Of a stretch of DNA of 64,000 bases, positions 16,283 to 37,170 are shown in pieces. The translations under genes and the position numbers were made by a program. Position 1 is the stretch's first letter, and every line of letters starts with the position of its first letter. The stretch lies in contig CBDFMP010000037.1 of assembly GCA_965249715.1 (NCBI GenBank), positions 711 through 64,710 of the forward strand, written 5' to 3'. The stretch is from Spirochaetota bacterium. Lineage in GTDB: Bacteria > Spirochaetota > UBA12135 > COTS27. A model generated the notes under the pieces. That model saw only the letters and a list, made by a program, of their open reading frames with translations, ran no database searches and was not told the origin of the DNA.

Positions 16283-16702
16283 TCAGCACCAGTTATTGAG
16301 TCTTTCTCTTAGCGCAGGCAGCCAAGGCTGCGACGTTATCTCGCCTGTTTCGTGTTTTGTAATAAAAACAAGAATAAACGTGCCTTCAATGACTAGCTGC
16401 TGCTTTTGATTGCTAAAACTGAACTTGCAATGCAGGGAGTTGTTGCCAATTTTAGCAATAACAAGAGACTTAGTCAGAAAGTCGCCCATTTGCGCAGGCG
16501 CGCGGAAATCCACATTTAAATTGACAATGGGGACTCCATGTTTGGGATGCATTTCATGAAATGAAAAACGAACTTCTGTTTCAAAAAAATCTTCCACTAG
16601 GTCGTTCAACATGACCAAGTACTTGGGGTAGAAAACAATGCCAGCCTGGTCGCAATGTTGAAAGCGAACTTTTTGCTGTTTAATAAAACACTTTTCTTTC
16701 AT
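16283..16702 (-). CDS. hot-dog-fold acyl-CoA thioesterase (4HBT/YbgC type)
   Basis: 139 aa. N-terminal signature VRFQHCDQAGIVFYPKYL. Last gene of the minus-strand catabolic operon. Confidence 0.7.
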   Translation of the reverse strand: MKEKCFIKQQKVRFQHCDQAGIVFYPKYLVMLNDLVEDFFETEVRFSFHEMHPKHGVPIVNLNVDFRAPAQMGDFLTKSLVIAKIGNNSLHCKFSFSNQKQQLVIEGTFILVFITKHETGEITSQPWLPALRERLNNWC

Positions 16703-16764
16703 CGGCTTAATAAATGAATATAATGATTTTGCAAACGGGAGCTTGAAACGACTACTGAGACGAC

Positions 16765-18345
16765 TTATTTCTTTTTAAGGCGATTGGCAATATGCACTCC
16801 CGCTGCTCCGCCAAGCCCTGGTCCTGGATGTGTGGAAGCGCCATTGTGGTAAAGGTTTTTAATGGGTGTCTGATGATTGACGGCGGATTTGAATGGACGC
16901 CAAAATAAGTATTGGTCCATATCGCATGCTCCACTGTAAGGATCGCCATGTCTTAGATTGATATTCAGCTGGCTGAGCTCTTTGGGAGAAATAATTTCTT
17001 TGTACACCACCGCAGATTTGATATTGCTGATGTAAGGCTCTATTCTGTCAAGTATTCTATTGGCGTAAGCTGTTTTTAGTTCATCGTTCCATTCCTGTTG
17101 GCACAATGCGTTCAATTTGTTTGCAGCGTCGCCCTTAGGATAATTAGGGCATTCTGGCAATTGAATCCACAATATATGTTTTCCCTTAGCGGCGCGGCTG
17201 GGGTCTAAACTGCTGGGTTGGGCAATGCAGATGGTTGCTTTTTGCGGCAAAAGCTGCCTTTTGGCTTCACCCACAGCTTGTGATACGTCGTCGATGCCGT
17301 TAGACAAATGGACATAAACAATGTTTTTTAGTTGTTCATCGTACCAGGCGGGAGGTTCATTGAGGATAAGGTGTATTTGCATATTGCCCATACCGTATTG
17401 GTAGTTTTCAGCTTCAACTAAGCGTTCCTGAGGCAAATGTTGTTTGTCTTTAAGCAATTTAAGATAAAGCTGTGTTGGATTGACACTGGCGACGACATTT
17501 TTGGCTTCGTAGGTTTCACCATTTTTTAACCGTACGCCTTTAACTGCGCCATTGTTATGGATTAAAATTTCATCAACATGCGCGTGGAGCTTGCATTCTC
17601 CATGCCCCCTTTCAATAATACTTTTAAAGGCTTCTACTATTTTATAACTTCCTCCTTTGACCATAGGGAGCCCGACCATTTCTACTGTCATGGCGACAAT
17701 TTTTGCCATAACAGCTGAGAACGTACTGTCCGGTGATAAACCGGTATGCAAGATCCATGGTGCAAACAAGGCTTGTACTTCAGCGGATTTAAAATGTTTG
17801 GGCAGATCATTGCGCGCACTGGAGAGGTATTGACCGATGTTGTTTAAAATCCCTTTGATTTTATGTTTAAAAAAATATTTAACAAAGAATTTGGCAACTT
17901 TTTTGCTGCGGAGTTCTTCGCCAAGGAGCAGAAAAAACAGCTCTGCATGTTGTCCAACCCATTGCATTTGCTCAGCGAACCTGTCGCCGTCTCCTGCGTG
18001 TTTTTGATTAAACGCTAAGCTGTTCTTTTCCCGATCCGTGGATAAAACAACATATTTTTTGTTTTCCAATACACTGGCAGTCGGGGTATTGTTTGCGACA
18101 AATTCCACACCAAAATGTGTCAAATCCTCTTTGAGTGCAGCATAGGCAGGAGAGGTCACAAACAGCGGGTAAGCTGTTGAAAGTGTGTCAATGGTACAAC
18201 CTTCGACGTGGTGGCTTCGTATACATCCGCCAAGGAAAGCACTGCTCTCCAATAACAAAACTTTTTTGCCTGCTTTTGCCAGCAATGAAGCACAGACTAA
18301 GTTATTGATGCCGCCGCCTACCAGGATAGTGTGAATATTTTTCAT
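16765..18345 (-). CDS. FAD/NAD(P)-dependent oxidoreductase, phytoene-desaturase (CrtI)/amine-oxidase-like
   Basis: 526 aa. Dinucleotide-binding N-terminus ILVGGGINNLVCASLLAKAGKKVLLLE. Substrate not inferable. Confidence 0.65.
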   Translation of the reverse strand: MKNIHTILVGGGINNLVCASLLAKAGKKVLLLESSAFLGGCIRSHHVEGCTIDTLSTAYPLFVTSPAYAALKEDLTHFGVEFVANNTPTASVLENKKYVVLSTDREKNSLAFNQKHAGDGDRFAEQMQWVGQHAELFFLLLGEELRSKKVAKFFVKYFFKHKIKGILNNIGQYLSSARNDLPKHFKSAEVQALFAPWILHTGLSPDSTFSAVMAKIVAMTVEMVGLPMVKGGSYKIVEAFKSIIERGHGECKLHAHVDEILIHNNGAVKGVRLKNGETYEAKNVVASVNPTQLYLKLLKDKQHLPQERLVEAENYQYGMGNMQIHLILNEPPAWYDEQLKNIVYVHLSNGIDDVSQAVGEAKRQLLPQKATICIAQPSSLDPSRAAKGKHILWIQLPECPNYPKGDAANKLNALCQQEWNDELKTAYANRILDRIEPYISNIKSAVVYKEIISPKELSQLNINLRHGDPYSGACDMDQYLFWRPFKSAVNHQTPIKNLYHNGASTHPGPGLGGAAGVHIANRLKKK

Positions 18346-18363
18346 AATATTTTTTGACCCTAA

Positions 18364-19908
18364 TTAAAGTTCTTGTATTTTGTTTTTCAATGCCTTGGTT
18401 TGATGGTTTTGTAAAGCAAAAGCGATTAAAAAATCTATTGTTTGGGCAATGTTTTTTTGCTTTTTATTTTTTAGTGCATAAACATTGATGAGGTGAAATT
18501 TGCTTTCACCGCGTTCGGAAGTACTGCCATAACCCTTTTTCAGGCGATAAGTTTTTGTTATTTGTACTGCCAGCTGATAATTAACTTTCATGGCTTCCGT
18601 TATGTTGGCCAACCACTCAGTCATCAGCTGCATTTCTTTAAAATGCCGTAATGTTTTCAAGCGCCAGCTTTTCATTCCGCCCATTATGTAAAGCAATGTG
18701 AAACCTAGGATCCCGGTGCTTTTCATTCTCCTATCGCGATCGAAGTATTTGGTAAAGCTTTTTTCCATAGTTTTGTTGGCTGCCGCGCGTTGTCCCAATT
18801 TTGCAGGTAAAAAACCGCAAAACTCCTTAAATGAGGGATGCAAATAATCAGTGGTTGTGACGAGGTCATTTTCTTTGGCATTGACTTGTGCATACATTTC
18901 TACAAACCTCTCGCGGCGCGTTTTCATGTCTGCCACATAGACCAAGTCATCGTAGCTCATGGCAATCGCTAAATAACGGGCAAGCTGTTCACTGAGTTGA
19001 AACTGCTGTTTGGGATGTTTTTTTTCCCGTTCCAAAAAAACAGTTAATTTTTTCAAGTACTCTTTTGCCCAATTAATATTTTGCCAATCAGCCAAATGTT
19101 TGGCACCGCAGTACACAATATCATGAAGTTCCAACGGGAAGCGGACTTTTATATCCTGAATAAGCAAGTTCCACTTTTTATGTTTGGAGTACTTGGGAAT
19201 ACTTTTTAGCTCTGCCTGCTTGAGTTCCGATTGAAATGGTTTGGGTTGATGTTTGAAAGTTTTAATGTATTCAAAGGCTTCTTCAAATGCTGCCAAATTG
19301 GCAGGCACTGTAATGCCGCTTTTTTTTATGACTTTTATGAATGATGCTTTTTTAAACGGCAAGGTTTCACTGGCGGCTAAGGCGCCCAAGAGTGTAGCGG
19401 AAATAACACTGTTGTTTTTGTCAGCAATGAATTTGAAATTTCCGTACAAACATGTTTTGGCATGTTTGTTAACCATTTTCAGAATTTTTTCTGAATTAAC
19501 AATGCCATCTCCAGGTTTTTCTTTTTCTTTGATGGCAAGGTTTCTATGTGAAGAGAATATGGCAGTTGTCTTTTTTGAAATAAACTCTCTGGCCAAGGCG
19601 CGTCCTGCTTCCATTAATTCAGTGGCAAGCAACACGTCCACATCTGCTGGTGCGGGCATCTGCGCTAAGACTGGGGTCATTAATTTTTTATTGACGGTTA
19701 TTTCAGCTAAGGGTATCAACTCCATATAATAGACTGTCGCCCCGGTTCTTTGCGCAACGCCAGCTATGGATGTGGCTTGACACCAGTAGCCATTTGTTTC
19801 TGCTAACGCAGTGACCCAGTTAGTGAGTACACTGCCGCCATCGCCGCCGACCGCTAACAAGGCAACTTTATACGGTTGAGCAGCAATCAACTGCACTCGT
19901 TTTGTCAT
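18364..19908 (-). CDS. iorB: indolepyruvate/aryl-2-oxoacid:ferredoxin oxidoreductase, beta subunit family
   Basis: 514 aa. N-terminal POR-gamma-type domain (LLAVGGDGGSVLTNW...GVAQRTGATVYY). Its ATG overlaps the iorA stop as ATGA (19905-19908). Confidence 0.7.
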   Translation of the reverse strand: MTKRVQLIAAQPYKVALLAVGGDGGSVLTNWVTALAETNGYWCQATSIAGVAQRTGATVYYMELIPLAEITVNKKLMTPVLAQMPAPADVDVLLATELMEAGRALAREFISKKTTAIFSSHRNLAIKEKEKPGDGIVNSEKILKMVNKHAKTCLYGNFKFIADKNNSVISATLLGALAASETLPFKKASFIKVIKKSGITVPANLAAFEEAFEYIKTFKHQPKPFQSELKQAELKSIPKYSKHKKWNLLIQDIKVRFPLELHDIVYCGAKHLADWQNINWAKEYLKKLTVFLEREKKHPKQQFQLSEQLARYLAIAMSYDDLVYVADMKTRRERFVEMYAQVNAKENDLVTTTDYLHPSFKEFCGFLPAKLGQRAAANKTMEKSFTKYFDRDRRMKSTGILGFTLLYIMGGMKSWRLKTLRHFKEMQLMTEWLANITEAMKVNYQLAVQITKTYRLKKGYGSTSERGESKFHLINVYALKNKKQKNIAQTIDFLIAFALQNHQTKALKNKIQEL

Positions 19909-22058
19909 TCTAACAGGAAGTCACGAATTCTGCGGTTTTGCAGAATTAGCAAATAGGATTTTTGTATGTTGTGGATCATTTTTTCAAACCAACCTGGATG
20001 GCGAACTACAGCTGCCTTATAAAAAGATGGGCATAAAACCGCTGCTTCAGCCACTTCACCACAGTTGCCGCAGGCTACACAGGAATTATCAATATGCGCA
20101 ATAGGGTCTTCTTTTAAGGGGTTGGGACTGTACGTTAATGTGAGTGAGGGACAGCCCGATAGGCGGATGCACTCGTGGTCGCCCGAACAGATCTTAGCAT
20201 CCACGCCAAAAATTTCTTTGACCACTCTTTGTTTTTGCGCTAAGCTTCGAGTCAATTGTTTTTTGGCCCTTCTTTGTTTAGTGAGCATACATTCAGATTG
20301 CGCAATGATAACCTTGGGGCCTTTTTGGGGTGTCGTCAATGCCCGTGTAAGCACTTTTACCATTTTGGCTACATCGTAAGTATTGTCTAAAAAGTCCACC
20401 CATTGTACACCGACGCCTCTTACCGCTTTTTCAATGGAGTTAAAGGTTTTGCGTATTGTGTTTTTGGATCGTGAGGAAGGAAGGTCTTGCCCTCCCGTTG
20501 CGGCTGCGTAGTTATTGTCGATGATAATAATAACGCCGTCATATTTGTTGAAGACGGCATTTGTAATGCCTGAGTTCAAGCCGTTATGCCAAAAGCCGCC
20601 ATCGCCCATAATGGAAATGGCTCTTTTTTGTTTTTCATTGACGTTAAGCTTATGAGCATTGAAAGCTGAGGCTGAAGACACTCCTAAGCCATAACCCATA
20701 GTGGAGGCGCCGATGTTGAACGGGGGGAGGATTGAAAACAGATGGCAGCCAATATCGCCAGTAATATGATGTTCTCCTAAATTTTCCTGTACCAGCTTCA
20801 ATGCTGCAAAGATGGGTCTTTCAGGACACCCTGTGCAGAAACCGGCGGGACGTACAGGAACGGATTGCTGTAGCAGGGTTTTTTCTTTTTGCGATAAACT
20901 GCTTTGCGGAGTACTTTCAGGTTGACGGACCGCAACAAAAGCACTTAAAAACTTTTTTAGTCCTTTTTCTAGCGCGTCAATGCTATAATCGCCTGCGGTT
21001 GGCAGAACGTTTTTTCCCCAAAGTTCTGTTGCGGATTTATTTTGAAAGAGAATTAAGCTCAGGCTTTGTTCCAAATAATTCGGCTGACCCTCTTCAATGA
21101 GCAATACCGCTTTTTTTCCTTTACAGAACTTCAATACTTCTTCAGGAATGATAGGGTAGGTTACATTCATGACGTATTGCGTAATTTTTGTATGCCCGAG
21201 GATGTCCGCCAAGCCTAGCCGCGATAATGCTCTGTTTAAATTGTTGTATAGTCCGCCCTGGACGATGATGCCAATATCTTTTCTTTCACCTTCATGAAAT
21301 TCATTTAAGCGATTTTTTTGGATATATTGAATGGCCCTGGGCATACGTGAACGTACTTTTTCCTGCTCCTGAATGAAAGACGCAGGGGGAAGCACAATCT
21401 TATTGATATCTCTTTGGGGATTATTCAAGCTTTCCGCTAAAGTATGTTTAGGGCTAACATTAGTTTTTGCTTTAAACTGCCCATATAGATGACAGCTCCT
21501 GACTCTGAGTTGGAGGATAACCGGGGTATTGCTGGCTTCGGATAGCGTAAACGAATGTTCAACAGCGGCAACAATGCTTTCCAAGTTGGGTTTTGGATCC
21601 AGCAGCCACATTTGCGATTTCATGGCAAAGGCATGTGTTCGTTCTTGCATAATGGACGAGCCTTCTCCGTAATCTTCCCCCACAATGATAATGGTGCCGC
21701 CTACAACACCACTGGATGAAAGATTGGACAAGGCATCGGAAGCAACGTTGGTACCAACGGTTGACTTCCAGGTTACCGCTCCGCGTACGGGGTACAGTAC
21801 CGAAGCTGCCAACATAGCGGCAGCGGCAGCTTCGGATGCTGAATTTTCAAAATAAACGCCCAGTTCTTTCAGCAGTGGTTCGGCATCGGCAAAGACGTCC
21901 ATGAGGTGGGAAATGGGGGCGCCTTGGTAGCCCCCCACATAAGCCACGCCGCACTGCAAGAGCGCTTTAGTGACGGCTAAGATGCCTTCACCGTGAAAAG
22001 TTTTACCTTCACCTATCCGTAAGGTTTCAACTTCTTTTTTAAAAGACCTTTCCGCCAT
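19905..22058 (-). CDS. iorA: indolepyruvate/aryl-2-oxoacid:ferredoxin oxidoreductase, alpha subunit (TPP and 4Fe-4S binding)
   Basis: 717 aa. TPP motif GDGGFWHNG...IIIIDNNY. C-terminal ferredoxin-like cysteines CVACGNCGEVAEAAVLCPS. Confidence 0.8.
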   Translation of the reverse strand: MAERSFKKEVETLRIGEGKTFHGEGILAVTKALLQCGVAYVGGYQGAPISHLMDVFADAEPLLKELGVYFENSASEAAAAAMLAASVLYPVRGAVTWKSTVGTNVASDALSNLSSSGVVGGTIIIVGEDYGEGSSIMQERTHAFAMKSQMWLLDPKPNLESIVAAVEHSFTLSEASNTPVILQLRVRSCHLYGQFKAKTNVSPKHTLAESLNNPQRDINKIVLPPASFIQEQEKVRSRMPRAIQYIQKNRLNEFHEGERKDIGIIVQGGLYNNLNRALSRLGLADILGHTKITQYVMNVTYPIIPEEVLKFCKGKKAVLLIEEGQPNYLEQSLSLILFQNKSATELWGKNVLPTAGDYSIDALEKGLKKFLSAFVAVRQPESTPQSSLSQKEKTLLQQSVPVRPAGFCTGCPERPIFAALKLVQENLGEHHITGDIGCHLFSILPPFNIGASTMGYGLGVSSASAFNAHKLNVNEKQKRAISIMGDGGFWHNGLNSGITNAVFNKYDGVIIIIDNNYAAATGGQDLPSSRSKNTIRKTFNSIEKAVRGVGVQWVDFLDNTYDVAKMVKVLTRALTTPQKGPKVIIAQSECMLTKQRRAKKQLTRSLAQKQRVVKEIFGVDAKICSGDHECIRLSGCPSLTLTYSPNPLKEDPIAHIDNSCVACGNCGEVAEAAVLCPSFYKAAVVRHPGWFEKMIHNIQKSYLLILQNRRIRDFLLE

Positions 22059-22099
22059 TTTTTGCCCTTACAGAAAAAGAAAAGTAAATAATGGAAAAG

Positions 22100-23503
22100 C
22101 TATCTTTTAAAAACAAGAAGCCTTAACACAGGATAACCAATAAGCGAAACCCCTAAGCTGGTAAGGAATTCAATCGGGATAACGGACGGTAGTACGTAGT
22201 GTGCTAGAACAGTCGCCAGCACAACGGTAATAACGCCTGCCCAGTTGACAATCTCATTCTTTTGAATTTCTTCCTCTATATTCAGCTGACGTTTTCTTAC
22301 GATATAATAATCCGCAATCATAATGCCTGCAAATGTAGTGGTTAAAACGCCTAAAATATTGATCCAGTCGTTCACCAGCGCTAGGATTTGCCCATAAAGC
22401 ATGAATAAACCAATAATATTGGCAAGGATGACAAACGTGACGCGCCCGGGTTTCCATGAAGTCAGTGCATCAAAGAGGTTGGTTAAGGAGAGCGATGCGC
22501 TGTACGTGTTTAACACCTGAGCCTTGCCCTGTGCCAACACCATTAGGATCGTCCCAAGGAACCCGCCGATAAGGATAAATACTGCCGTTACACCATCAGG
22601 GCTAAGCGCCAGTTGACCAGCAGCTTGCGGATCCATGCCGCGGCCAATGTAGTGATTGACTAACTCAGTACCGCCTGCGTCCATCATAACGCCGCCTACA
22701 AAGACCATCGCAATGCTCATGGCTGCATTGGCAATGAACGCAGCAATGGTAATATCTTTTGTGGATCTGGCGTAACGCCCCATATCGGCATCCACCAAAG
22801 CCAATGCCCCCGCTGAGCCGATCAGCAGGTTGATGCCGAAAATATATTTGCCGGCTACGGTGTGTGCACCCATTGCCAGCAAGTCTTTTTCGGGGAAGCG
22901 CGGTGCAATCGCCCAAATGCTGCCGTCGCCGCCGTATTTATTCACAATCACCCAGGTAACATATACCAGGACAAATAAGAACGCTATCAGCGTGACCGAT
23001 GAAACCTGCGCGACCAACTTAAAGCCATAAGCGGTTAAGAGGATCCAGGTGATGGTTAGGAGACCATAAATAATGATCGCATTGAGGATGGTATCCGGCA
23101 GGTTAAATGCAAAAATAAATCCCTTGTAGAGCAAGGCATTTTCAAGCGCCAAAAAGCCGATGATCATGAATGCGAAGATAAGCGATGCAATAATGGATCC
23201 CTTTTTTCCAAATCCTAAAAAGCGTGCCATGACGGTGCTGGAAAAGCCCGTTTTATACGCCAAGTGTCCGGTAATGGATCCCAGCGTGCCGCCTACAAGC
23301 GTTACCAGCACACCGCAGATAAGCGCAATTTTAATACCTGCAACATAAGTCAGCAGCGCACCAAAAAAGATAATGATGAGCGTTGTACAAATGCCTGCAG
23401 TGTTCCATGTAAGTGCCAGCCAATTTTTGCGTTCACTTTCAGGAACAGGCTCCAGTGCATGATCCTCCATGACCGCTTTAATGTTTTTAGTTTTTTGTTC
23501 CAT
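22100..23503 (-). CDS. NCS1-family permease (purine-cytosine/hydantoin-type)
   Basis: 467 aa, about 12 hydrophobic segments. The N-terminal cytoplasmic tail followed by NWLALTWNTAGICTTLIIIFFG is typical of CodB/NCS1 carriers. Confidence 0.65.
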   Translation of the reverse strand: MEQKTKNIKAVMEDHALEPVPESERKNWLALTWNTAGICTTLIIIFFGALLTYVAGIKIALICGVLVTLVGGTLGSITGHLAYKTGFSSTVMARFLGFGKKGSIIASLIFAFMIIGFLALENALLYKGFIFAFNLPDTILNAIIIYGLLTITWILLTAYGFKLVAQVSSVTLIAFLFVLVYVTWVIVNKYGGDGSIWAIAPRFPEKDLLAMGAHTVAGKYIFGINLLIGSAGALALVDADMGRYARSTKDITIAAFIANAAMSIAMVFVGGVMMDAGGTELVNHYIGRGMDPQAAGQLALSPDGVTAVFILIGGFLGTILMVLAQGKAQVLNTYSASLSLTNLFDALTSWKPGRVTFVILANIIGLFMLYGQILALVNDWINILGVLTTTFAGIMIADYYIVRKRQLNIEEEIQKNEIVNWAGVITVVLATVLAHYVLPSVIPIEFLTSLGVSLIGYPVLRLLVFKR

Positions 23504-23574: not shown

Positions 23575-24348
23575 TTATTCAACCAAAGCAAGTACTCGCA
23601 ATGGACTGCCTGAACCTTGTTCTATTTTTAACGGTGCAGCAACGATGACTGCGCCCTTAGCGGGCAATTGATCTAAATTTCGCAGACATTGCAAGCCGTA
23701 CTTTCCCGCTCCGTGCATGAGCGTATGACAGGGGAGCTGCATTTCCCAAGTAAAAGACATGCCAGCATCCGTGTTGATGGTTTCAACGCCAAATCCTAAA
23801 ACGTCTTTTTCAATCATGTATTCCACAGCTTCTTTATCGGGACCGGGCGTATGATTAAGTCCATCTGAACCTGTATTTAAAAAGTCGGGACCTAATGATC
23901 TTTTATGCCAATCCGTTCTGAATAACACCCATTCACCAGCTTGCAAAGCTCCATTTGTTTCTTCCCAAGCTTGAATGAATGATTTTGTTAAAATAAAATC
24001 GGGGTTATCAGCAACTTCTTTTGCGGCATTGAGCACGCTGGCACCTGCCAGAAAATGTTTGCTCACTAAGGTGTCAACCGAATTATTGGCATGGTCTTTA
24101 CCTGTGACCCAGTGAATGGGTGCGTCAAAATGCGTGCCCGTGTGTTCTCCGCAAGTAAAATTGTTCCAATACCACCCGGGCCCCTTGTCGTCATATTTGG
24201 ATATTTGTGTCTTTGAAAATGGCACTACTTGACCAAATTCGGGGGGAAGCTGTAAAGCTGGAAATGCCTCATTCAATGTATGAGTCAAATCGACAACCTT
24301 AACTTGGTTGGTTTGAATGGTTTTTGTTAACTCTTGTAAAATCTTCAT
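23575..24348 (-). CDS. cyclase-family metallohydrolase (kynurenine-formamidase/isatin-hydrolase-like)
   Basis: 257 aa. HxGTHxDxPxH motif present as GEHTGTHFDAPIHW. Confidence 0.75.
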   Translation of the reverse strand: MKILQELTKTIQTNQVKVVDLTHTLNEAFPALQLPPEFGQVVPFSKTQISKYDDKGPGWYWNNFTCGEHTGTHFDAPIHWVTGKDHANNSVDTLVSKHFLAGASVLNAAKEVADNPDFILTKSFIQAWEETNGALQAGEWVLFRTDWHKRSLGPDFLNTGSDGLNHTPGPDKEAVEYMIEKDVLGFGVETINTDAGMSFTWEMQLPCHTLMHGAGKYGLQCLRNLDQLPAKGAVIVAAPLKIEQGSGSPLRVLALVE

Positions 24349-24372
24349 GGTCCTGACCTTGTAAATTTTAAT

Positions 24373-26682: not shown

Positions 26683-26770
26683 AACAACAGCTCAAAACTT
26701 AAAAGCACTACTGCCACCAAACACCCTGCCTGCATCCTCTGCAACCCGAGCGAGCAGGGTGATGGCAAAA

Positions 26771-28264
26771 TTAACTATGAAAACTAGCTGCCCTTCCCTT
26801 ATGGAAGCGTTTAGCTTTTTTGTTAATAATTTTTTTGTAGTCTTTCGCACTTGCTGGAACATTCCATTGATTGAAAAGCTTAAAGGTGCTTAAATTCATT
26901 TTAAGATCTTCCAGCAACTCATCAACATGATGCATTGAAAAAGGAATAATATTGGTTCCTCTTGCATTTTTCCCAAGTGTCCTAGCTTTTGACCAGGCAA
27001 GTTTCCGTTTGGTTGCCCTTATCATTTCTGCCTGACCAGGTAGTGAAAATCCGCTGGTAAAGTACTCCGCCATCCATAAGGCACCAACTTCTGAACTCAA
27101 GGGGCTGTAGAATGATGAGTTATAACCGTTAAAACCTAAATGCTGTGTTCCAATAGGAAGTTGGTTTTTATATAAGAAAAAATCCTTATTTTCATCAAAA
27201 AGCAGTGTGTCGATTGATTTGTCCAGAAAAGGAACCTCCTGCTTGAAGCCAGTTCCGCAAATAATAATGTCTGCAGGAATTTCTTCTCCGTTTGCTAAAA
27301 CAAGACCCCGGGAATTGAGCTTTTTAATGTCAGTTTTTTTCACGACAACTGACCCGTCACCAACTTTTTCAAAAAAACCGGCTGTAACCTGACTGACATT
27401 TGCCCGCGTGATTGTCTCGAACTTAGTGCCCGGATGGAGGCCGCGTTTCCTCAGTTTCAACTGTTTTTCAATGTGCTTTTCAATAGAATTGACGAGAAAA
27501 TTCCTTACCGGTTTGCCAAGAGTGTGCAGGAATTTAGGAAATCCTTTAAGATCAATATACTTGATCAAGTTTTCTCCCATACGCGTTAAAAACAAGTACT
27601 TGAAATTAAGGAAGCCAAAAAATATTCGCGGCAATTTCCAGATAATTTCGCGCGCGACAACGGTCATAGACTTGGCAATTGGCGCAAGTGCATTGGCGAC
27701 ATCGCATGAAGATTTGCCGAACCCAATGACAACTATATTTTTTCCTTCGGCATCACTTTCATTATGAAATTGCGTGGTGTGGACAATTTTGCCGCCAGAA
27801 CTTTTAAAAGTTTCTGCACCATTAAAATTCGGAATAAAGGGCTTACAAAATATGCCATTGCAAATGATCAGATAATCATAGACATCTACACCATCTTTCT
27901 GATTGGGCGAGCGCCATTTCACTATCCACTTATTTTTTCTTTCCTGATGGGCTGATGTGACCTCAGTGTTAAATCTAATCAACCGCCGTAAATCTTGTTT
28001 ATCTGTGTAGCTTTCAAGGTAATTCTGAACTTGTTTTCCTGAAGGCCATTCGGGATACTGTTTAGGCATTTTTAAATCAGCCAAATAGTAGGTATCCTTA
28101 GTGTTTTGCGTGGATAACCCAGGGTAACGTTGGGACGTAGCCCAAACACCGCCCACTTCTTTATCTTTTTCATACACAGTCACATCAAAGCCATAAAGCT
28201 TGAATATGTTAGCAGTTGATAAACCTGCAAAGCCTGCGCCAATAATCCCAATTTTCTTTTTCAT
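26771..28264 (-). CDS. flavin-containing monooxygenase (class B, FMO-like)
   Basis: 497 aa. FAD motif IGIIGAGFAGL. Second dinucleotide motif VVIGFGKSSCD. Confidence 0.7.
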   Translation of the reverse strand: MKKKIGIIGAGFAGLSTANIFKLYGFDVTVYEKDKEVGGVWATSQRYPGLSTQNTKDTYYLADLKMPKQYPEWPSGKQVQNYLESYTDKQDLRRLIRFNTEVTSAHQERKNKWIVKWRSPNQKDGVDVYDYLIICNGIFCKPFIPNFNGAETFKSSGGKIVHTTQFHNESDAEGKNIVVIGFGKSSCDVANALAPIAKSMTVVAREIIWKLPRIFFGFLNFKYLFLTRMGENLIKYIDLKGFPKFLHTLGKPVRNFLVNSIEKHIEKQLKLRKRGLHPGTKFETITRANVSQVTAGFFEKVGDGSVVVKKTDIKKLNSRGLVLANGEEIPADIIICGTGFKQEVPFLDKSIDTLLFDENKDFFLYKNQLPIGTQHLGFNGYNSSFYSPLSSEVGALWMAEYFTSGFSLPGQAEMIRATKRKLAWSKARTLGKNARGTNIIPFSMHHVDELLEDLKMNLSTFKLFNQWNVPASAKDYKKIINKKAKRFHKGRAASFHS

Positions 28265-28282
28265 GATATATTTCCGTACAAA

Positions 28283-28319
28283 TTTTATGGAGAGCTAATT
28301 TTTTTATGGAGAGCTAATT
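28283..28319. repeat. 18-bp direct repeat x2 (ttttatggagagctaatt) between the SDR stop and the FMO start
   Basis: Copies at 28283-28300 and 28302-28319, identical, with 1-nt spacing. Confidence 0.85.
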
Positions 28320-28362
28320 TTAAACTGATTTGTTATGTTGTTTGGTTGATTGCAGCACCAGC

Positions 28363-29148
28363 TTAATCTTTCTGCAAGATGGGAAATAATGGAGTATGCC
28401 CCTCAGGACCCATGGCTGAGTAGCCCCCGTCAACAGGTATTTCTCCGCCGGTCATGTAAGAAGCCTGGCTGCTTGCAACAAAAGCAGCTACCCTTGCCAC
28501 TTCTACACCATCTGCCACCCGTGACATCAGGTTAAACGGAGAGACTGCTTGATCAGCGTGAGAACGATCGTTTTTGGTTAAACCTTCAAAAGGTGCAGAC
28601 CAGATATGTCCCAATCTTAACAAGTTCACCCTGATCTTATCCTGCGCATATTCTACTGCTTGTGTTTTTGTTAAATGCAATAACGCAGCTTTTGAAATGG
28701 GATAGGCCCACCTGCCAATGTGTGGATAACAACCTGATATTGAGCCAATATTGACGATGCAGCCCTGTGTTTTTTTGAGATGAGGCCTGCATTTCTCGCC
28801 TAAAATAGCAGCTGATACTATGTTGACGTTGAGCGTTGCCAGCCAAGTCTTCCTATCCGTTGCTGCCCCGTCATCACCATAAGAGCACGCATTATTGATT
28901 AAAATATCTATTTTCCCGAACTTAGCCAGAGTTTGCGCTATCAATGCGTCCAGTTCCGCGTCAATGGATATATCCGTACTGAGCAATAATGCCTGCGACA
29001 GTTCCGCTTGCTGTTTAGCCTGTTCAATGGATCCCCTTGCGGCAATGGCAACCTTGCAGCCCCTCTTGATAAATTCTTTTGAAAGCTCACCACCAATGGA
29101 CGCTGCACCCCCGGTAATGATGACTACTTTGTTCGCTAAATCTTCCAT
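28363..29148 (-). CDS. short-chain dehydrogenase/reductase (SDR)
   Basis: 261 aa. Cofactor motif VIITGGAASIGGE. Catalytic YxxxK present as YPISKAAL. Confidence 0.85.
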   Translation of the reverse strand: MEDLANKVVIITGGAASIGGELSKEFIKRGCKVAIAARGSIEQAKQQAELSQALLLSTDISIDAELDALIAQTLAKFGKIDILINNACSYGDDGAATDRKTWLATLNVNIVSAAILGEKCRPHLKKTQGCIVNIGSISGCYPHIGRWAYPISKAALLHLTKTQAVEYAQDKIRVNLLRLGHIWSAPFEGLTKNDRSHADQAVSPFNLMSRVADGVEVARVAAFVASSQASYMTGGEIPVDGGYSAMGPEGHTPLFPILQKD

Positions 29149-29588
29149 AGTTAATCCTCCTGTAACGATAAATGATAATTGTTTTGATTAATTAAAAGTA
29201 TTTCTGTGTGTAAAATCAAATGATACTATTGAAACACTAAGTCTAGAAACTAAAATTTTTAAGCTCATTAAAAAACTTATTTTTAGGTTTAATGAATAAT
29301 ATCATTATATGTTTTTGTTTTTGCCTGAAATTTTTATTGAAAATTAAATTAATGACACAAATGAATAAAATTTTATAGCTAATGTGCAAGTTATCATGCA
29401 AGAAACTAAAATAAATAATACAATTAAAAGTAGTTTGTTACACAAAACAATAAATTTTTACGGCAAATAAGCAAATTAGTGAAAAATCTAGAAAAACAAT
29501 GATACAATTAAAAATAGTTTTTTAGTTTTTTGAAAAAAAATTCTGTATTTTTTATTTTTATTTAAAATTTTTATATAAAAATGAGTGT
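29149..29588. promoter_or_regulatory. 440-bp very AT-rich divergent control region between the two catabolic operons
   Basis: No ORF. Repeated motifs: atacaattaaaaRtagtttKtta at 29418-29440 and 29502-29524 (21/23 identical); tctagaaa(c) at 29242 and 29487; agaaactaaaat at 29245 and 29401. Confidence 0.45.
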
Positions 29589-29618
29589 TTGTTAAATATT
29601 ATAACTTTAATCGTGCAA

Positions 29619-30611
29619 ATGATTCAATTTAAAGCAGCTGTTGTACAGACGTCGTCAGTTTTTTTTAACTCAAAGGCGACAGCAGAAAAAGCTTGTTTGC
29701 TAATGGAAGAAGCCAGTAAAAATGGTGCTGCTATCGTTGCTTTTCCTGAAGTATTTATCTCGGCATACCCATATTGGAATTGGCTGCTGAGCCCAATAGC
29801 TGGCGGTGAATGGTTTGAACGGCTGTATCATTCTGCCATTGAAAGTGACGGCGAAGAGGTTGAAATGCTGAAAACAGCCGCTAAAAAGTTTAACATCAAT
29901 GTTGTTATCGGCTGTAATGAACGGGAAAAAACAAGAAATGGCACTATTTTTAATACAAATCTGCTCATCAGTCACCAGGGAGAGTTGCTGGGCAAACATA
30001 GAAAGTTAGTGCCTACATGGGCAGAAAAATTATCATGGACCGGTGGCGATGGCAGTACACTGAAAGTTTATCAAACTAATATTGGCCCCTTGGGAACGCT
30101 GGCATGTGGGGAAAACACCAATCCTTTGGCAAGATATACCTTGCTTTCACAAGGGGAATTGGTGCATGTTGCCAATTATATTTCATTGCCGGTGGCACCC
30201 GAGGATTACAATATGGCCGAAGCCATTAAAATAAGAGCGGCTGCCCATTCCTTTGAAGGCAAAATGTTTACCCTAGTCGCCTGTTCAATCATTTCCGATG
30301 AGGCACTCACATTGTTAGAGAAGTCTGAGCCAAAAATTAGAGAGCGTTTTGCCAGAAAAAATAGTGCTTTTTCAGGTATCATCGGCCCTGGTGGTGTGCC
30401 AATTTCAGAGCCCTTGATTGACGAAGAAGGCATTGTTTATGCAGACATCGATCTCAATAAGTGCATACAGCCTAAACAGATGCACGATATTTTGGGAGGC
30501 TACAATCGTTTTGATATTTTTGAACTAATAGTCCACACTAAAAAAAACGAGCCAATACATTATGAAGAAAACAAGCGCTCAGCAAAAGCAGAACCAACGA
30601 TAATCGCTTAG
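29619..30611 (+). CDS. nitrilase-branch carbon-nitrogen hydrolase
   Basis: Glu-Lys-Cys triad contexts: IVAFPEVF, HRKLVPT, LACGENTNPL. ATG 29619 (MIQFKAAVVQ) is preferred over the TTG at 29589 used by the ORF track. Confidence 0.8.
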   Translation: MIQFKAAVVQTSSVFFNSKATAEKACLLMEEASKNGAAIVAFPEVFISAYPYWNWLLSPIAGGEWFERLYHSAIESDGEEVEMLKTAAKKFNINVVIGCNEREKTRNGTIFNTNLLISHQGELLGKHRKLVPTWAEKLSWTGGDGSTLKVYQTNIGPLGTLACGENTNPLARYTLLSQGELVHVANYISLPVAPEDYNMAEAIKIRAAAHSFEGKMFTLVACSIISDEALTLLEKSEPKIRERFARKNSAFSGIIGPGGVPISEPLIDEEGIVYADIDLNKCIQPKQMHDILGGYNRFDIFELIVHTKKNEPIHYEENKRSAKAEPTIIA

Positions 30612-30675
30612 TGCAGAAAATAGTGCAGAAAAAAGTGCAGAAAAATAATTTTTAATAGCAGGCAGGTACATTGTT

Positions 30676-31806
30676 ATGAAAAAAGCAAACTCACAACCAT
30701 TTGACGATGCAGCTTACGGCAGATCCAGGGTAACCGATACTGATGAACTGAAAGCATATTATGAGACAGTAAAGGGCTTGGGAACCGAAGCCTTTTGGAC
30801 GGTCGCCAATGAAATTGAACCTTGGGAACCGCATACATTATCTTCTGTCATGTTTTGGGATTTTGAAAAAATCAGACCGCATTTACTCAGAGCTGCAGAA
30901 TTAGTTTCGCCCGGTGAAGCTGGAAGAAGAGTTTTATACTTAGTCAATAAAAAACGTGCTGATATTAAGGCTGCCTGTGGTATGTTGTTTTCCGGCTTAC
31001 AAATTACGCGCCCTGGAGAATTTACCCCGGCGCATAAACATGTAGCTTCTGCTTTACGTTTTATCATGGAAGGCGCGGGCGGTTATACCATTGTCGACGG
31101 ACACAAAATTACGTTGGCACCAAGAGATTTTGTCATAACTCCCAATGGCACCTGGCATGAACACGGAGTGGTGGCAGAAGGTAAAACTTGTATTTGGCAG
31201 GACGGTTTGGATATCCCGATGGCCAATGCTTTTGAAGCAAACGATTATGCAGTATTGCCTGAAGGCAAGCAGCAAAAAGTTCTTTATCCATTGAATTATT
31301 CGCCAATGACCTTTGGCGGCAGCGGTTTATTGATGGCCGATAAGGAATGGGATAAACCATACTCTCCGCTTTTTAGGTATTCCTGGGAGCCTACTTATGA
31401 AACATTGCTGGCGGCTGAGAAAGTTAATGATGGTTCGCCCTTTGACGGCATTTTAATGGAGTATACAAATCCGATGACAGGAGGCCCAGTAATGGCGACT
31501 ATGGGTGCAGCCATGCAACTATTGCGTGCGGGTGAGCATACAAAAGCACATAAACATACCGGCTCCACCATTTATCAATGTGCTAAGGGCAAAGGTTATT
31601 CTGTTATTGAGGGAAAAAGATACGATTGGAAAGAAAAAGATATTTTCTGTGTTCCTTCATGGACATGGCATGAGCATTGCAATCTTTCCAATAGCGATAA
31701 CGCTTGTCTTTTCCAATTTAATGATTTGCCTACTGTGAAAAAGTTGTGTTATTATCAGGAAAAAGTTTATGCCGATAACGATGGTTATCAACCCATAAAA
31801 GCATAG
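30676..31806 (+). CDS. gentisate 1,2-dioxygenase-type bicupin ring-cleavage dioxygenase
   Basis: 376 aa. Two cupin modules: PAHKHVASALRFIMEG...GTWHEH and KAHKHTGSTIYQCAKG...WTWHEH. Confidence 0.8.
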   Translation: MKKANSQPFDDAAYGRSRVTDTDELKAYYETVKGLGTEAFWTVANEIEPWEPHTLSSVMFWDFEKIRPHLLRAAELVSPGEAGRRVLYLVNKKRADIKAACGMLFSGLQITRPGEFTPAHKHVASALRFIMEGAGGYTIVDGHKITLAPRDFVITPNGTWHEHGVVAEGKTCIWQDGLDIPMANAFEANDYAVLPEGKQQKVLYPLNYSPMTFGGSGLLMADKEWDKPYSPLFRYSWEPTYETLLAAEKVNDGSPFDGILMEYTNPMTGGPVMATMGAAMQLLRAGEHTKAHKHTGSTIYQCAKGKGYSVIEGKRYDWKEKDIFCVPSWTWHEHCNLSNSDNACLFQFNDLPTVKKLCYYQEKVYADNDGYQPIKA

Positions 31807-31900
31807 TTTAAACAGAATGTTGATGCCTGAAGAAGCTTTTTTCAGGCTGTTATGACAGCTGTGTCGAAAGTATTTTTACAATAAGGTTAGTATATTTTTT

Positions 31901-32824
31901 ATGAAATTAGTTAGTTATCAAGCTCAATCCAACCCGGAAAGTCGTTTGGCTTTTCAATTAAAAGCTGGAGCGATCAGCGATTATAGCCAGCTTGGAAAAA
32001 TCCTCAATCAAACGCTCCCAGCAACTATGTTAGCATTGATTGACAAAGGTGCGGCTTATATTGATGACTTAGAAAAAGCCATCGCCGCGCTTCCAGCAGA
32101 AGCTTATGAGCAGACGCTTATTGCTATGGACAGTGTGCAGATTTTAGCGCCTATCCCCAAGCTGCGAAAAAATATTTTTGGAATTGGCCTCAATTATACT
32201 GAACACATTGCAGAATCGGCTAGGGCCTTAGATACGGCAAAAGAATTGCCGCAAAAATGTGTTATTTTTACTAAGCCGCCAACTGCTGTTATCGCAAGTG
32301 GCGACCAGATAAGACTCAATAAAAATGTAACCCAACAGTTGGATTTCGAAGGCGAATTAGCAGTTGTCATTGGGAAAACGGGATTTAGAATTAAAACTGA
32401 AACGGCAATGGATCACGTTTGGGGTTATACCATCATTAACGATGTTAGTGCAAGGGATTGCAGGAGAAGCGGACAATGGATAGTCTCCAAGGGACAGGAT
32501 ACATTTGCACCTATGGGGCCTGTTTTAGTCACTAAGGCAAGTATCACAACTCCACACAATTTACAAATTGTGACCAAGGTCAATAACGTAGAAAAACAAA
32601 ATGGCAATACCCGCAACATGCTGTTTAACATACCCGCTATTATTGCAGATATTAGTGCGGTCATGACGCTTGAACCGGGAGACATCATTGCTACTGGAAC
32701 ACCGGCGGGGGTTGGAGCTGGACGGAAGCCGCAAGAGTGGTTGTCGCCTGGCGATACTATTGAAATTTCTATTTCTGAAATTGGAACGTTGAAAAATACC
32801 GTAGTGGACGACACCCACGCATAA
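31901..32824 (+). CDS. fumarylacetoacetate-hydrolase-family hydrolase (maleyl-/fumarylpyruvate hydrolase candidate)
   Basis: 307 aa. FAH-domain landmarks FEGELAVVIGK, GYTIINDVSARD, DIIATGTPAGVG. Confidence 0.8.
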   Translation: MKLVSYQAQSNPESRLAFQLKAGAISDYSQLGKILNQTLPATMLALIDKGAAYIDDLEKAIAALPAEAYEQTLIAMDSVQILAPIPKLRKNIFGIGLNYTEHIAESARALDTAKELPQKCVIFTKPPTAVIASGDQIRLNKNVTQQLDFEGELAVVIGKTGFRIKTETAMDHVWGYTIINDVSARDCRRSGQWIVSKGQDTFAPMGPVLVTKASITTPHNLQIVTKVNNVEKQNGNTRNMLFNIPAIIADISAVMTLEPGDIIATGTPAGVGAGRKPQEWLSPGDTIEISISEIGTLKNTVVDDTHA

Positions 32825-32841
32825 TTGCTTATTGCTAAACG

Positions 32842-33594
32842 ATGAAAAAAACATACAGAATAGGGCAAATAGTGCCCAGCTCAAATGTCACGATGGAAAC
32901 TGAAATTCCAGCTATTTTTAGGGAGCGGGAAAAACACTTCCCCGAAAGCTTTACGTTCCATTCTGCCAGAATGAGAATGAAACAGGTAACCGTAAAGGAG
33001 TTGGCTTCAATGGATGCCTTGTCCGATAAATGTGCTGAAGAATTATCCGATGCGGCAGTCGACGTTATGGGTTACGCTTGTTTGGTCGCTATTATGGCAA
33101 TGGGGAAAGGTTATCATTGCATCGCTCAGGAAAGATTACATAAGTTGACCCATAACAATGGACATCCCGCGCCTGTTGTCACAAGTGCAGGTGCCTTAGT
33201 GGAAGGGCTGGCTGTTATCGGTGCTAAAAAAGTTGCACTGGTGACTCCTTATATGAAGCCTTTAACACAGAAAGTGAGCGATTATATCGAGGATCAAGGC
33301 TTCGCTGTCTTAGACAGCGTATCTTTGGAAATCTCCGATAATTTACAAGTAGCCGTGCAGGATCCAATGAACCTGCTGCAGCATTATAAAAAACTTAAGT
33401 TAAACAATGTGGATACACTTATTTTATCGGCTTGCGTTCAGATGCCATCCTTAGCAGCTGTGCAGAAAGTGGAAACAGAATGCGGCATACAAACGGTAAC
33501 TGCTTCTGTCTGTACCGCTTATCAGATGATGAAAGAACTGGGCTTAAAAGCAGAGGTTCCTAATTGTGGTGCCTTATTGTCGGGAAAATATTAA
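32842..33594 (+). CDS. maiA: maleate cis-trans isomerase (Asp/Glu-racemase superfamily)
   Basis: 250 aa. IVPSSNVTMETE, plus the two Cys contexts GYACLVAIM and LSACVQMPSL typical of maleate isomerases. Confidence 0.75.
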   Translation: MKKTYRIGQIVPSSNVTMETEIPAIFREREKHFPESFTFHSARMRMKQVTVKELASMDALSDKCAEELSDAAVDVMGYACLVAIMAMGKGYHCIAQERLHKLTHNNGHPAPVVTSAGALVEGLAVIGAKKVALVTPYMKPLTQKVSDYIEDQGFAVLDSVSLEISDNLQVAVQDPMNLLQHYKKLKLNNVDTLILSACVQMPSLAAVQKVETECGIQTVTASVCTAYQMMKELGLKAEVPNCGALLSGKY

Positions 33595-37169: not shown

Positions 37170-37170
37170 T

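Follow-up and report, generated by a model that had tools for sequence, protein, structure and literature searches.

We analysed a 64-kb stretch of contig CBDFMP010000037.1 (positions 711 to 64,710; assembly GCA_965249715.1) from a Spirochaetota bacterium, which we call the window, and a 17-kb cluster of 13 genes within it. Judging from the encoded proteins and from gene neighbourhoods in other genomes, this cluster probably enables the aerobic breakdown of indole (or of a related indolic compound) by way of isatin, with fumarate, pyruvate, CO2 and ammonia as products, a route in which the 2-oxoacid oxidoreductase IorAB would replace the ligase that otherwise forms the aryl-CoA thioester. The key step of the route is the predicted conversion of isatinate and CoA to 2-aminobenzoyl-CoA and CO2 by IorAB. 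We infer this step from the complementary distribution of IorAB and the ligase and from the adjacency of IorAB to isatin hydrolase. The same route had been proposed in a sequence-only reading of this DNA. It is still the best-supported explanation; the sequence checks that were run all came out in its favour, and none of the sequence-level findings that the reading had listed against itself turned up.

Relatives of the bifunctional hydroxylase encoded in the cluster were fetched from genomes, and their neighbourhoods were scored by tblastn and by an unsupervised census of open reading frame (ORF) families, each locus scan covering at most 80 loci. Two types of locus emerged. The isatin hydrolase/IorAB type comprised 11 loci (the window, Sediminicola, Sphingobacterium, a metagenome-assembled genome (MAG) of Chitinophagales, Robiginitomaculum, Vibrio nigripulchritudo, Providencia, an Alcaligenaceae MAG and metagenome contigs), and the ligase type comprised eight (seven Flavobacterium and one gammaproteobacterial MAG). 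IorA and IorB were present in 10 of the 11 loci of the first type, isatin hydrolase in nine and a CrtI-like flavoenzyme in seven, and none of these was found in the eight ligase-type loci. The AMP-forming ligase showed the opposite distribution (0/11 and 8/8; Fisher p=1.3e-5 for 19 loci that are not phylogenetically independent). The downstream genes were common to both types. All eight ligase-type loci carried the thioesterase, the gentisate-1,2-dioxygenase-type enzyme (GDO), the FAH-family hydrolase, the nitrilase and the maleate isomerase, which were found in 9, 6, 6, 5 and 5 of the 11 loci of the other type; contig ends that cut several of these 11 loci probably explain part of the lower counts for the last four. 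Either IorAB or the AMP-forming ligase lay beside the hydroxylase in 18 of 19 loci from Bacteroidota and Proteobacteria, the exception being L013. Isatin hydrolase and IorAB stand where the ligase stands, upstream of the same hydroxylase, and this is the signature of non-orthologous replacement. Mutual exclusion with shared downstream genes is the pattern to be expected if IorAB makes the thioester in the ligase's stead, as the sequence-only reading had supposed; the co-occurrence of IorAB with the hydroxylase and GDO across genomes was a check that it had put forward.

The same gene set was syntenic in Flavobacteriia, Sphingobacteriia, Chitinophagia, Alpha-, Beta- and Gammaproteobacteria. A separate metagenome sample was made up of contigs picked solely for encoding a relative of isatin hydrolase. 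IorA/B genes were found in 22 of the 52 metagenome loci with at least 3 kb of flanking sequence, and in 10 of those they lay within 600 bp of the hydrolase gene; at least one IorAB subunit was encoded in 18 of the 32 loci of at least 12 kb. For a family with one or two copies in each genome, chance would give about 1%, a rough estimate that was not computed. Since the set recurs in synteny and IorA/B genes lie near metagenomic isatin hydrolases, the arrangement is beyond chance.

The cluster protein first described as a member of the cyclase family, which includes isatin hydrolase, is by strong homology a true isatin hydrolase. It would open isatin to isatinate (2-aminophenylglyoxylate). It contains a PF04199 Cyclase domain (4.6e-35) and is 62% identical to the assayed Ralstonia enzyme (PDB 5NMP, E=1.3e-106); its matches to the Labrenzia enzymes IH-A (5NNA/5NNB) and IH-B (4J0N) reached 1e-88 and 2.5e-75. 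The metal motif HxGTHxDxPxH is kept as EHTGTHFDAPIHW, aligns with the 5NMP motif, and its residues are invariant in 10 homologues. Kynurenine formamidase was rejected as an identity for this protein, since its match to that enzyme (KynB, 4COB) was only 3e-4, and the arylformamidase model TIGR03035 gave 27 bits against a cutoff of 223.

IorB scored 516 bits against NF006179, above the cutoff of 348, and has a POR gamma-like domain and DUF6537. IorA has a TPP_enzyme_C domain (1.7e-14) and ferredoxin-type cysteine motifs (C624/C630/C636-P and C660xxC663xxC666...C676-P; also C408xxC411). Its score of 296 bits against TIGR03336 (indolepyruvate:ferredoxin oxidoreductase, IOR) lay under the cutoff of 651, and by these matches IorA belongs to the family and is not an archaeal-type indolepyruvate enzyme. 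An ATGA overlap joins the IorA stop codon to the IorB start codon, and IorB is, as read from this overlap, translationally coupled to IorA; the coupling had been noted before and was seen again here. A precedent for the predicted reaction type is EdcC, an enzyme of the IOR family; in an aerobic pathway it forms an acyl-CoA from a 2-oxoacid, as confirmed genetically. We also considered a role for IorAB on a 2-oxoacid formed by ring cleavage, as with EdcC, and rejected it, since ligase-type clusters run the same lower genes without IorAB.

The sequence-only reading had known of no description of this gene combination as a pathway. This holds for the whole, in that no paper was found that describes the entire route or gives IorAB or its homologue IadAB a function, nor any that links isatinate to a CoA ester or to an IOR-type enzyme, in a literature search that took in few subscription journals. 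It does not hold for the parts, which have been published as iadA, iadB and iadI and as the GS cluster of Providencia. The iad locus (iadR-iadABCDEFGHIJK, starting iadR-iadA-iadB) is known from Variovorax, Achromobacter, Alcaligenes and Bradyrhizobium. Its IOR genes iadA and iadB have been described as 'exclusive markers' of such loci, and indole-3-acetate (IAA) induces IadA, IadB and the cyclase IadI. The pathway runs via dioxindole, isatin and isatinic acid; it was published as ending at anthranilate. According to a 2025 Variovorax preprint, IadI acts after dioxindole, and the intermediate placed behind it, C8H7NO3, is not N-formylanthranilate. This intermediate builds up strongly when iadC-K2 are overexpressed in a strain in which the whole locus, iadAB included, has been deleted. 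The build-up fits consumption of isatinate by IadAB, although overexpression is a confounding factor.

The published GS cluster of Providencia rettgeri GS-2 is the upper half of the system. It consists of GS-B (a short-chain dehydrogenase/reductase, SDR), GS-C/D (a StyA-type monooxygenase and its reductase), GS-A (a cyclase), GS-O (an oxidoreductase), GS-E and GS-R. GS-C/D oxidise indole, GS-B abolishes the formation of indigo, and GS-A abolishes an isatin-derived isomer. Colonies of E. coli turn yellow when GS-B, GS-C, GS-D and GS-A are co-expressed, and GS-O was left unexplained. On the Providencia contig in our set (L087), IorAB, thioesterase and hydroxylase genes lie directly downstream of GS-type genes.

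The most serious rival to an IorAB-made thioester is a route through free anthranilate. Here isatinate would undergo decarboxylation and oxidation to anthranilate without IorAB, spontaneously or by host enzymes, an unlinked ligase would make the CoA ester, and IorAB would have some other task, for example on indolepyruvate or a different 2-oxoacid. The iad and the iif pathways are both reported to end at anthranilate, and Variovorax with iadC-K2 but without iadAB still forms it, a compound C7H7NO that fits 2-aminobenzaldehyde being detected as well. Isatinate can therefore reach anthranilate without IorAB, at least under overexpression, which also tells against the step we propose. Even so we hold this rival to be unlikely. 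It leaves unexplained why, across the 19 loci, ligase and IorAB never occur together beside the hydroxylase, and why IorAB lies so close to isatin hydrolase in the 10 metagenomic loci mentioned above. The lower pathway is the same in ligase-type clusters, which have no IorAB, so the steps downstream of the thioester do not depend on IorAB. Nor was an AMP-forming ligase found by phmmer or tblastn among the ORFs of at least 90 aa in the window, in agreement with what had been read from the sequence earlier.

Two further explanations start from other substrates. In a salicylate/gentisate pathway like that of the Sdg system, a salicylyl-CoA hydroxylase and a gentisate dioxygenase would do the work, and the cyclase, IorAB, flavin monooxygenase (FMO) and nitrilase would be unrelated or merely co-located. 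The best NCBIfam model for the hydroxylase is indeed salicylyl-CoA 5-hydroxylase (NF006101), and an enzyme deposited as gentisate 1,2-dioxygenase shares 59.5% identity with the GDO. However, the hydroxylase falls under the equivalog cutoff of that model (868 against 1078 bits), a 2-amino substituent is indicated by the identity of the isatin hydrolase and by the connections with indole and IAA modules, and no complete cluster of either type has the lower pathway without a nitrilase-family gene, which is hard to square with a nitrogen-free substrate; we regard this pathway as improbable. A tryptophan/kynurenine pathway seems to us very improbable indeed. In that pathway the cyclase would act as kynurenine formamidase and the CrtI-like protein as amino-acid oxidase, and IorAB would turn indolepyruvate or a kynurenine keto acid into an acyl-CoA. 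In its favour, homologues of the cyclase are often annotated as kynurenine formamidase at source, a Variovorax homologue (L088) lies near a kynureninase-like gene, and IOR enzymes classically use indolepyruvate. Against it stand the placing of the cyclase among isatin hydrolases, the iad intermediate C8H7NO3, placed after the IadI step, which is not N-formylanthranilate, and the lack of a tryptophan dioxygenase, kynureninase or thiolase gene in the cluster. The CrtI-like protein groups with enzymes of the carotenoid-desaturase type and gave no match to the L-amino-acid oxidase model.

Several observations count against the isatin route with IorAB. No ferredoxin or other acceptor for the electrons of IorAB is encoded in the cluster, and the remaining ORFs of the window (90 aa or longer) did not include a stand-alone ferredoxin. 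Among the 32 longer metagenome loci with isatin hydrolase, 14 showed no IorAB and only seven had the hydroxylase within the locus; the coupling of the three is frequent, not obligatory. With scores under the NCBIfam equivalog cutoffs, IorA, the hydroxylase, GDO and the nitrilase may each use a substrate other than that of the enzyme for which the model is named. Solved enzymes of the FMO family are no more than distant relatives of the FMO (best E=3e-31), so that sequence does not tie it to any characterised indole oxidiser. Finally, the authors of the Providencia study, who analysed a 7-kb fragment, found salicylate and catechol and proposed a catechol route.

In the route that we favour, the FMO would oxygenate the pyrrole ring of indole, as suggested by its position and by its replacement in relatives by an indole monooxygenase. 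It is a class B flavoprotein whose nearest solved structures are FMOs, closest to those of the eukaryote type, and a 55% identical protein recurs in an independent cluster (L090). A StyA-type monooxygenase with flavin reductase takes its slot in L001, L003, L085 and L087. That this swap involves an enzyme whose Providencia homologue oxidises indole agrees with the earlier assignment of the FMO as indole oxidiser. In the window, tblastn with the StyA and reductase queries from L001 gave no hits.

The SDR and the CrtI-like FAD enzyme would carry the product of the FMO to isatin, in an order that is uncertain. The SDR would oxidise the indole 2,3-diol or the indoxyl stage, like IifB and GS-B. It scored 278 bits against NF006121 (cutoff 294); its orthologues are 57-69% identical in L001, L003, L085 and L090, and it shares 40% identity with the GS-B-type gene product of Providencia L087. 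The CrtI-like enzyme would oxidise dioxindole (or 2-aminomandelate) toward isatin or isatinate. In an alternative order, the hydrolase would open dioxindole and the FAD enzyme would then oxidise 2-aminomandelate. The protein has no close characterised relative, with 180 bits against the CrtO model, far under its cutoff, and weak PDB matches; it belongs to the family of the gene in the GS-O slot of the Providencia cluster. A role in handling nitrogen, suggested for it earlier, did not stand up. The gene adjoins isatin hydrolase in L086 and L087, shares a strand block with FMO and SDR in L090 and occurs in no ligase-type cluster, which makes a part in nitrogen handling unlikely. We also rejected a general lower-pathway role for it in re-aromatising a reduced ring, as four ligase-type clusters (L005, L008, L022 and L025) keep the whole lower pathway without a CrtI-like or Glu_synthase-like gene.

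Three front ends were found on one core. FMO, SDR and the CrtI-like enzyme form the first, in the window and in metagenome locus L090, where this unit faces a block in the order isatin hydrolase, IorA, IorB, nitrilase, GDO, FAH, maleate isomerase (MaiA), hydroxylase. The second, a StyA-type monooxygenase with flavin reductase and SDR, is found in Sediminicola, Sphingobacterium, Providencia and metagenome contigs (L001, L003, L085, L087). The third, in Alcaligenaceae L089, is of the iad type, with Rieske oxygenase, ligase, thiolase and SDR. Isatin is a metabolite common to the routes of all three, and all three could supply it to the core. The Rieske oxygenase IadDE, with IadC, is necessary and sufficient for attack on IAA; Rieske and Ring_hydroxyl domains were absent from the cluster and from the rest of the window. 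Because the entry enzyme is an FMO, the substrate in the window is likely indole and not IAA. The NCS1 permease would import a substrate. Its orthologue (61%) was found only in L003 and L004 among the related loci mapped, which makes it an accessory gene.

For the lower pathway, the 769-aa hydroxylase had been placed earlier in the aryl-CoA 5-hydroxylase/OYE family. It is a full-length member of NF006101 (aligned over positions 1-751 of 768), with a VioD-like N-terminal half (residues 2-355) and an Oxidored_FMN domain (389-720, 1.6e-65), and its homologues are named anthraniloyl-CoA monooxygenase or salicylyl-CoA 5-hydroxylase at source. An exact-match query with the window's protein hit no public contig. 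By family-level homology it would hydroxylate 2-aminobenzoyl-CoA at C5. The 4HBT thioesterase, whose gene accompanies that of the hydroxylase as described above, would free the hydroxylated aromatic acid from CoA, again by family. The gentisate-type dioxygenase would, by homology, cleave the ring between positions 1 and 2. It matched PDB 3BU7 from S. pomeroyi, the deposited gentisate 1,2-dioxygenase referred to above, at E=3e-156, and the HxH...H motifs are retained in both cupins; it scored 277 bits against TIGR02272 (cutoff 442) and 242 against the 5-aminosalicylate dioxygenase model (cutoff 650).

The FAH enzyme would release pyruvate from the product of ring cleavage, an assignment at superfamily level. 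It had been read as a maleylpyruvate hydrolase of the HbzF type. The FAH fold is clear (Table 1), but the solved maleylpyruvate hydrolase 6JVV is no more than a distant relative (1.5e-28). The cluster protein matched the uncharacterised 8SKY (1e-67) and the diketo-deoxyrhamnonate hydrolase 8GSR (2e-42) better, with FAHD1 acylpyruvase and the fumarylpyruvate hydrolase 4MAQ among the weaker matches. The maleate isomerase, by strong homology, would turn maleate into fumarate. It is 57.7% identical (4e-88) to 4FQ7, which we take to be the P. putida S16 enzyme. A cysteine is kept in the motif SACVQMPS, where the aligned residue is alanine in the variant entry 4FQ5, and another in GYACLVAIM; both are presumably catalytic.

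The nitrilase-family enzyme would release ammonia, as its strict co-occurrence with the lower pathway suggests. Its gene was found in all eight ligase-type loci and in every locus of the isatin hydrolase/IorAB type that showed GDO, except L086, which ends within the FAH gene. Its best PDB matches were true nitrilases (6ZBY at 6e-56, 8UXU and 3WUY) and cyanide dihydratases, and the amidase branches matched at 1e-6 or worse. The Glu-Lys-Cys triad is present (FPE, HRKL, C173), and TIGR04048 gave 213 bits, under the cutoff of 503. The motif ACGENTN at the catalytic Cys173 is invariant in 13 cluster orthologues; solved relatives read C-W-E, or C-A-E in NitA, and the signature could be used to find this nitrilase subfamily in databases. 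We had taken CGE in place of CWE as a sign of a non-nitrile substrate and withdrew this, since NitA, the best solved relative, reads CAE.

Where the nitrogen leaves can be placed before or after ring cleavage. We weigh the two almost equally, with a slight and tentative lean toward removal before cleavage. In that case the nitrilase-family enzyme would hydrolyse an enamine, and re-aromatisation would give gentisyl-CoA and then gentisate. Gentisate was reported in the Alcaligenes pathway and a deaminated cyclohexanedione-carboxyl-CoA in Arthrobacter, and the identity of the dioxygenase to a named gentisate dioxygenase also supports this order. Removal after ring cleavage is nearly as likely. 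The thioesterase would then free 5-hydroxyanthranilate, the dioxygenase would cleave it between C1 and C2 to an amide or nitrile, and FAH and nitrilase would yield maleate, pyruvate and ammonia. In support of this, the nitrilase is a homologue of true nitrilases and is usually encoded with GDO, FAH and MaiA, GDO and nitrilase are jointly absent from L009, and a hydroxyanthranilate (m/z 152) was seen in an iad strain (V. boronicumulans), where it was assigned as the 3-isomer by co-elution. What remains of our expectation falls to some other way of removing nitrogen. A fuller combination seems to us quite unlikely, namely that IorAB/IadAB consumes isatinate and that the dioxygenase also cleaves 5-hydroxyanthranilate between C1 and C2, the carbon with the amino group, to a nitrile (3-cyanoacryloylpyruvate) or an amide, from which the nitrilase would form a maleate-type acid and ammonia. 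We know of no enzymatic precedent for nitrile-forming cleavage of an aromatic ring. The nearest chemical analogy known to us is the copper/O2 cleavage of o-phenylenediamines to mucononitriles.

The features of the cluster are collected in Table 1. The ORFs and protein families given in the sequence-only reading were recovered as such, the coordinates matching and Pfam and NCBIfam agreeing for every family. Nine ORFs lie on the minus strand (16283-29148) and four on the plus strand (29589-33594). Genes within each strand block are spaced by -4 to 98 nt, and this short spacing fits two divergent operons around a 440-bp spacer.

Table 1. Genes of the cluster and the spacer between its two strand blocks, in window coordinates.
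Feature	Position	Strand	Length	Evidence
4HBT-fold acyl-CoA thioesterase	16283..16702	-	139 aa	Pfam 4HBT_2 1e-10
CrtI/amine-oxidase-like FAD oxidoreductase	16765..18345	-	526 aa	Pfam Amino_oxidase 2e-16
IorB/IadB-type beta subunit	18364..19908	-	514 aa	NF006179, Pfam POR + DUF6537
IorA/IadA-type alpha subunit, 2-oxoacid:acceptor oxidoreductase (thiamine pyrophosphate (TPP), Fe-S)	19905..22058	-	717 aa	TPP_enzyme_C
NCS1-family permease	22100..23503	-	467 aa	Pfam Transp_cyt_pur 3e-14, TIGR00800
Isatin hydrolase by homology (Mn-dependent cyclase-family amidohydrolase)	23575..24348	-	257 aa	PDB 5NMP match
Bifunctional FAD monooxygenase/OYE reductase, aryl-CoA 5-hydroxylase family (ACMR/SdgC type)	24373..26682	-	769 aa	NF006101
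Class B flavin monooxygenase (FMO-like)	26771..28264	-	497 aa	Pfam FMO-like 1e-40
SDR dehydrogenase	28363..29148	-	261 aa	Pfam adh_short_C2 2e-43
Divergent intergenic region	29149..29588	.	440 bp	19% GC
Nitrilase-branch CN-hydrolase	29589..30611	+	340 aa	CN_hydrolase 3e-38
Bicupin gentisate-1,2-dioxygenase-type enzyme (GDO)	30676..31806	+	376 aa	PDB 3BU7 match, two Cupin_2 stretches
FAH-family acylpyruvate (2,4-diketo acid) hydrolase	31901..32824	+	307 aa	FAA_hydrolase 5e-72
Maleate cis-trans isomerase (Amdase/maleate isomerase)	32842..33594	+	250 aa	PDB 4FQ7 match

The promoters of both operons are presumably within the spacer. An imperfect 33-nt direct repeat lies there (29408-29440 and 29492-29524, 85% identical, 84 nt apart, core ATACAATTAAAA[G/A]TAGTTT); it may serve an unlinked regulator as operator, or may have arisen by chance in DNA with 19% GC. 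A scan of 15800-34500 for the sigma-70 consensus found sites no more frequently than chance (43 against 37 expected), and terminator scans gave 18 sites against 21 expected. ORFs of at least 90 aa outside the cluster were screened for a ligase, a helix-turn-helix regulator and a ferredoxin. No such regulator was found among them, which bears out the earlier remark that one is lacking, but the lack is peculiar to the window's copy, since relatives carry IclR, AraC or MarR genes.

The cluster is flanked by rpoN (14303-15925) and by lptB (33651-34376), the first of the lptB, lptA-like and lptC genes that span 33651-37794. Genes for rpoN and lptB are often neighbours. The isoleucyl-tRNA synthetase of the host (39568-42765) shares no more than 62% identity with any protein in the database; the closest named match comes from a Spirochaetota MAG, and SAR324/'Deltaproteobacteria' come next at about 50%. 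Identity to proteins of Sediminicola (Flavobacteriaceae) is 51-81% for the cluster proteins, with 69% for the hydroxylase and 81% for the isatin hydrolase, and the GC content at third codon positions is 0.42 in the cluster and 0.49 in the flanks. The simplest reading is that the 17-kb cluster is probably a horizontally acquired island from a Bacteroidota-like donor in a deeply branching uncultured bacterium. Such acquisition may account for the missing IclR/AraC/MarR regulator and the missing outer-membrane channel of the relatives.

Further observations concern related loci. A gene for a Bac_luciferase-type monooxygenase recurs in isatin hydrolase/IorAB clusters (L001 916-2025, L009 20-1111, L085 8897-9985 and L157) and has no counterpart in the window; in Sphingobacterium it sits between hydroxylase and hydrolase. 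A gene for a 201-aa flavin-reductase-like protein lies directly 5' of the hydroxylase in seven of the eight ligase-type clusters (L002 9395-10000; L005, L006, L008, L022, L025, L028) and was found in L003 only among IorAB-type loci. L088 (Variovorax sp. PBL-H6, 6942-10780) encodes a 64% identical homologue of isatin hydrolase near kynureninase-like, TctC-type and RidA-family genes and without IorAB; because its context differs, the isatin-hydrolase clade is not wholly part of the module. Loci L014-L032 (Rhizomicrobium and other Alphaproteobacteria) encode hydroxylase relatives of 45-46% identity; a distant ligase-like gene is present in most and an SDR-like gene in several. They carry no thioesterase, GDO, FAH or nitrilase genes and probably represent the classical non-aromatic 2-aminobenzoyl-CoA route. 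In Sediminicola (L001 18960-20288), a TIR/SIR2-domain gene, typical of anti-phage defence, follows directly after the thioesterase gene.

Elsewhere in the window, a full-length AcrB-type pump gene (4301-7504, 1067 aa) is followed by about 1.6 kb nearly free of ORFs (7505-9111) and by a 567-aa ORF (9112-10815) that aligns only to positions 1-489 of the 1021-position AcrB profile and may be a truncated or frameshifted second pump gene. The LptA-like protein (34392-37223) has 943 aa, unusually large for its kind, with weak LptD_N, OstA and LptC-like matches; its ORF runs into the beginning of an LptC gene of normal size (37171-37794). The only RNA genes detected in the window were two for tRNA-Met (CAT), at 47561-47634 and 47802-47878, which lie about 170 bp apart.

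A 2018 review of indole metabolism listed the enzyme consuming isatin or isatic acid and the enzyme for anthranilate to gentisate in the 1983 Alcaligenes pathway as missing, and the cluster with its relatives offers one testable answer to both gaps. If the proposal is true, an iron-sulfur 2-oxoacid oxidoreductase, evidently working in aerobes, makes 2-aminobenzoyl-CoA from isatinate and spares the ATP of the ligase, the hydroxylase, thioesterase and dioxygenase then lead the ring into central metabolism, and a function is offered for IadAB and GS-O, that is, for unassigned genes in auxin- and indole-degradation loci. We propose as new the link from isatinate to CoA, the assignment of IadAB and GS-O, and candidate genes for the orphan route from indole to gentisate. 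Taken singly the enzyme families are ordinary, and the pathway is built from known kinds. The iad locus matters for plant-root development, with iadA and iadB serving as diagnostic markers, and indole and IAA are signals in guts and rhizospheres, so that a complete sink pathway matters for reading metagenomes. The module is present in culturable bacteria, namely Providencia rettgeri, which has been studied experimentally, Sphingobacterium, Vibrio nigripulchritudo and Sediminicola.

Among known systems, EdcC of aerobic estrogen degradation in Novosphingobium and Sphingomonas resembles our proposal in that an IOR-family enzyme of an aerobe makes an acyl-CoA one carbon shorter and so replaces a ligase; it is likened here by its description. 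The EdcC case is backed by a mutant phenotype and an accumulating metabolite, and its substrate, a steroid meta-cleavage product, is unlike isatinate. In the iif system of Acinetobacter and the GS cluster of Providencia, as in the window, an SDR accompanies the indole-oxidising flavoenzyme, and Providencia also has the cyclase GS-A and the FAD oxidoreductase GS-O. These systems use StyA-type IifC or GS-C with a reductase, whereas the window has a single-component FMO and is without their outer-membrane MetA-type channel and AraC regulator. In the published iif pathway IifA converts 3-hydroxyindolin-2-one to anthranilate; the window and its relatives carry isatin hydrolase instead, no search aimed at an IifA homologue having been made. 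Between the iad locus and the window only IadA-, IadB- and IadI-type genes are common, and the Rieske genes iadCDE, the ligase and thiolase genes iadFG and the MarR regulator of iad are lacking in the window. In Alcaligenaceae L089, an iad-type locus has the genes for thioesterase, hydroxylase, GDO, FAH and nitrilase within it.

The lower half is closest in logic to the Sdg pathway of Streptomyces sp. WA46 and the Ceh pathway of Rhizobium sp. X9, in which an AMP-forming ligase activates the free acid, salicylyl-CoA is converted to gentisate, and no nitrogen is involved. The aryl-CoA, the bifunctional 5-hydroxylase of the same family, the hydrolysis of the thioester and the gentisate-type 1,2-dioxygenase are shared, and the window differs in having no ligase and in having a nitrilase and a maleate isomerase. 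The 2-aminobenzoyl-CoA pathway of Azoarcus evansii (ACMR) and Arthrobacter sp. Rue61a shares the hydroxylase/reductase family and, likely, the substrate 2-aminobenzoyl-CoA; 5-hydroxyanthraniloyl-CoA and the deaminated cyclohexanedione-carboxyl-CoA have been observed in this aerobic pathway. There the thioester comes from a ligase, and breakdown of the non-aromatic product is believed to proceed at the level of the CoA ester, in contrast to the window with its thioesterase and aromatic ring-cleavage dioxygenase. The pairing of a C-N hydrolase with a maleate isomerase for a nitrogen-bearing C4 fragment is like the end of nicotinate and nicotine degradation. In those pathways maleamate is converted to maleate and then to fumarate (NicF/NicE; Ami/Iso of P. 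putida S16). The C-N hydrolase of the window is of the nitrilase branch, not an isochorismatase-type maleamate amidase as at the NicF/NicE end, and the ring that would be cleaved is carbocyclic.

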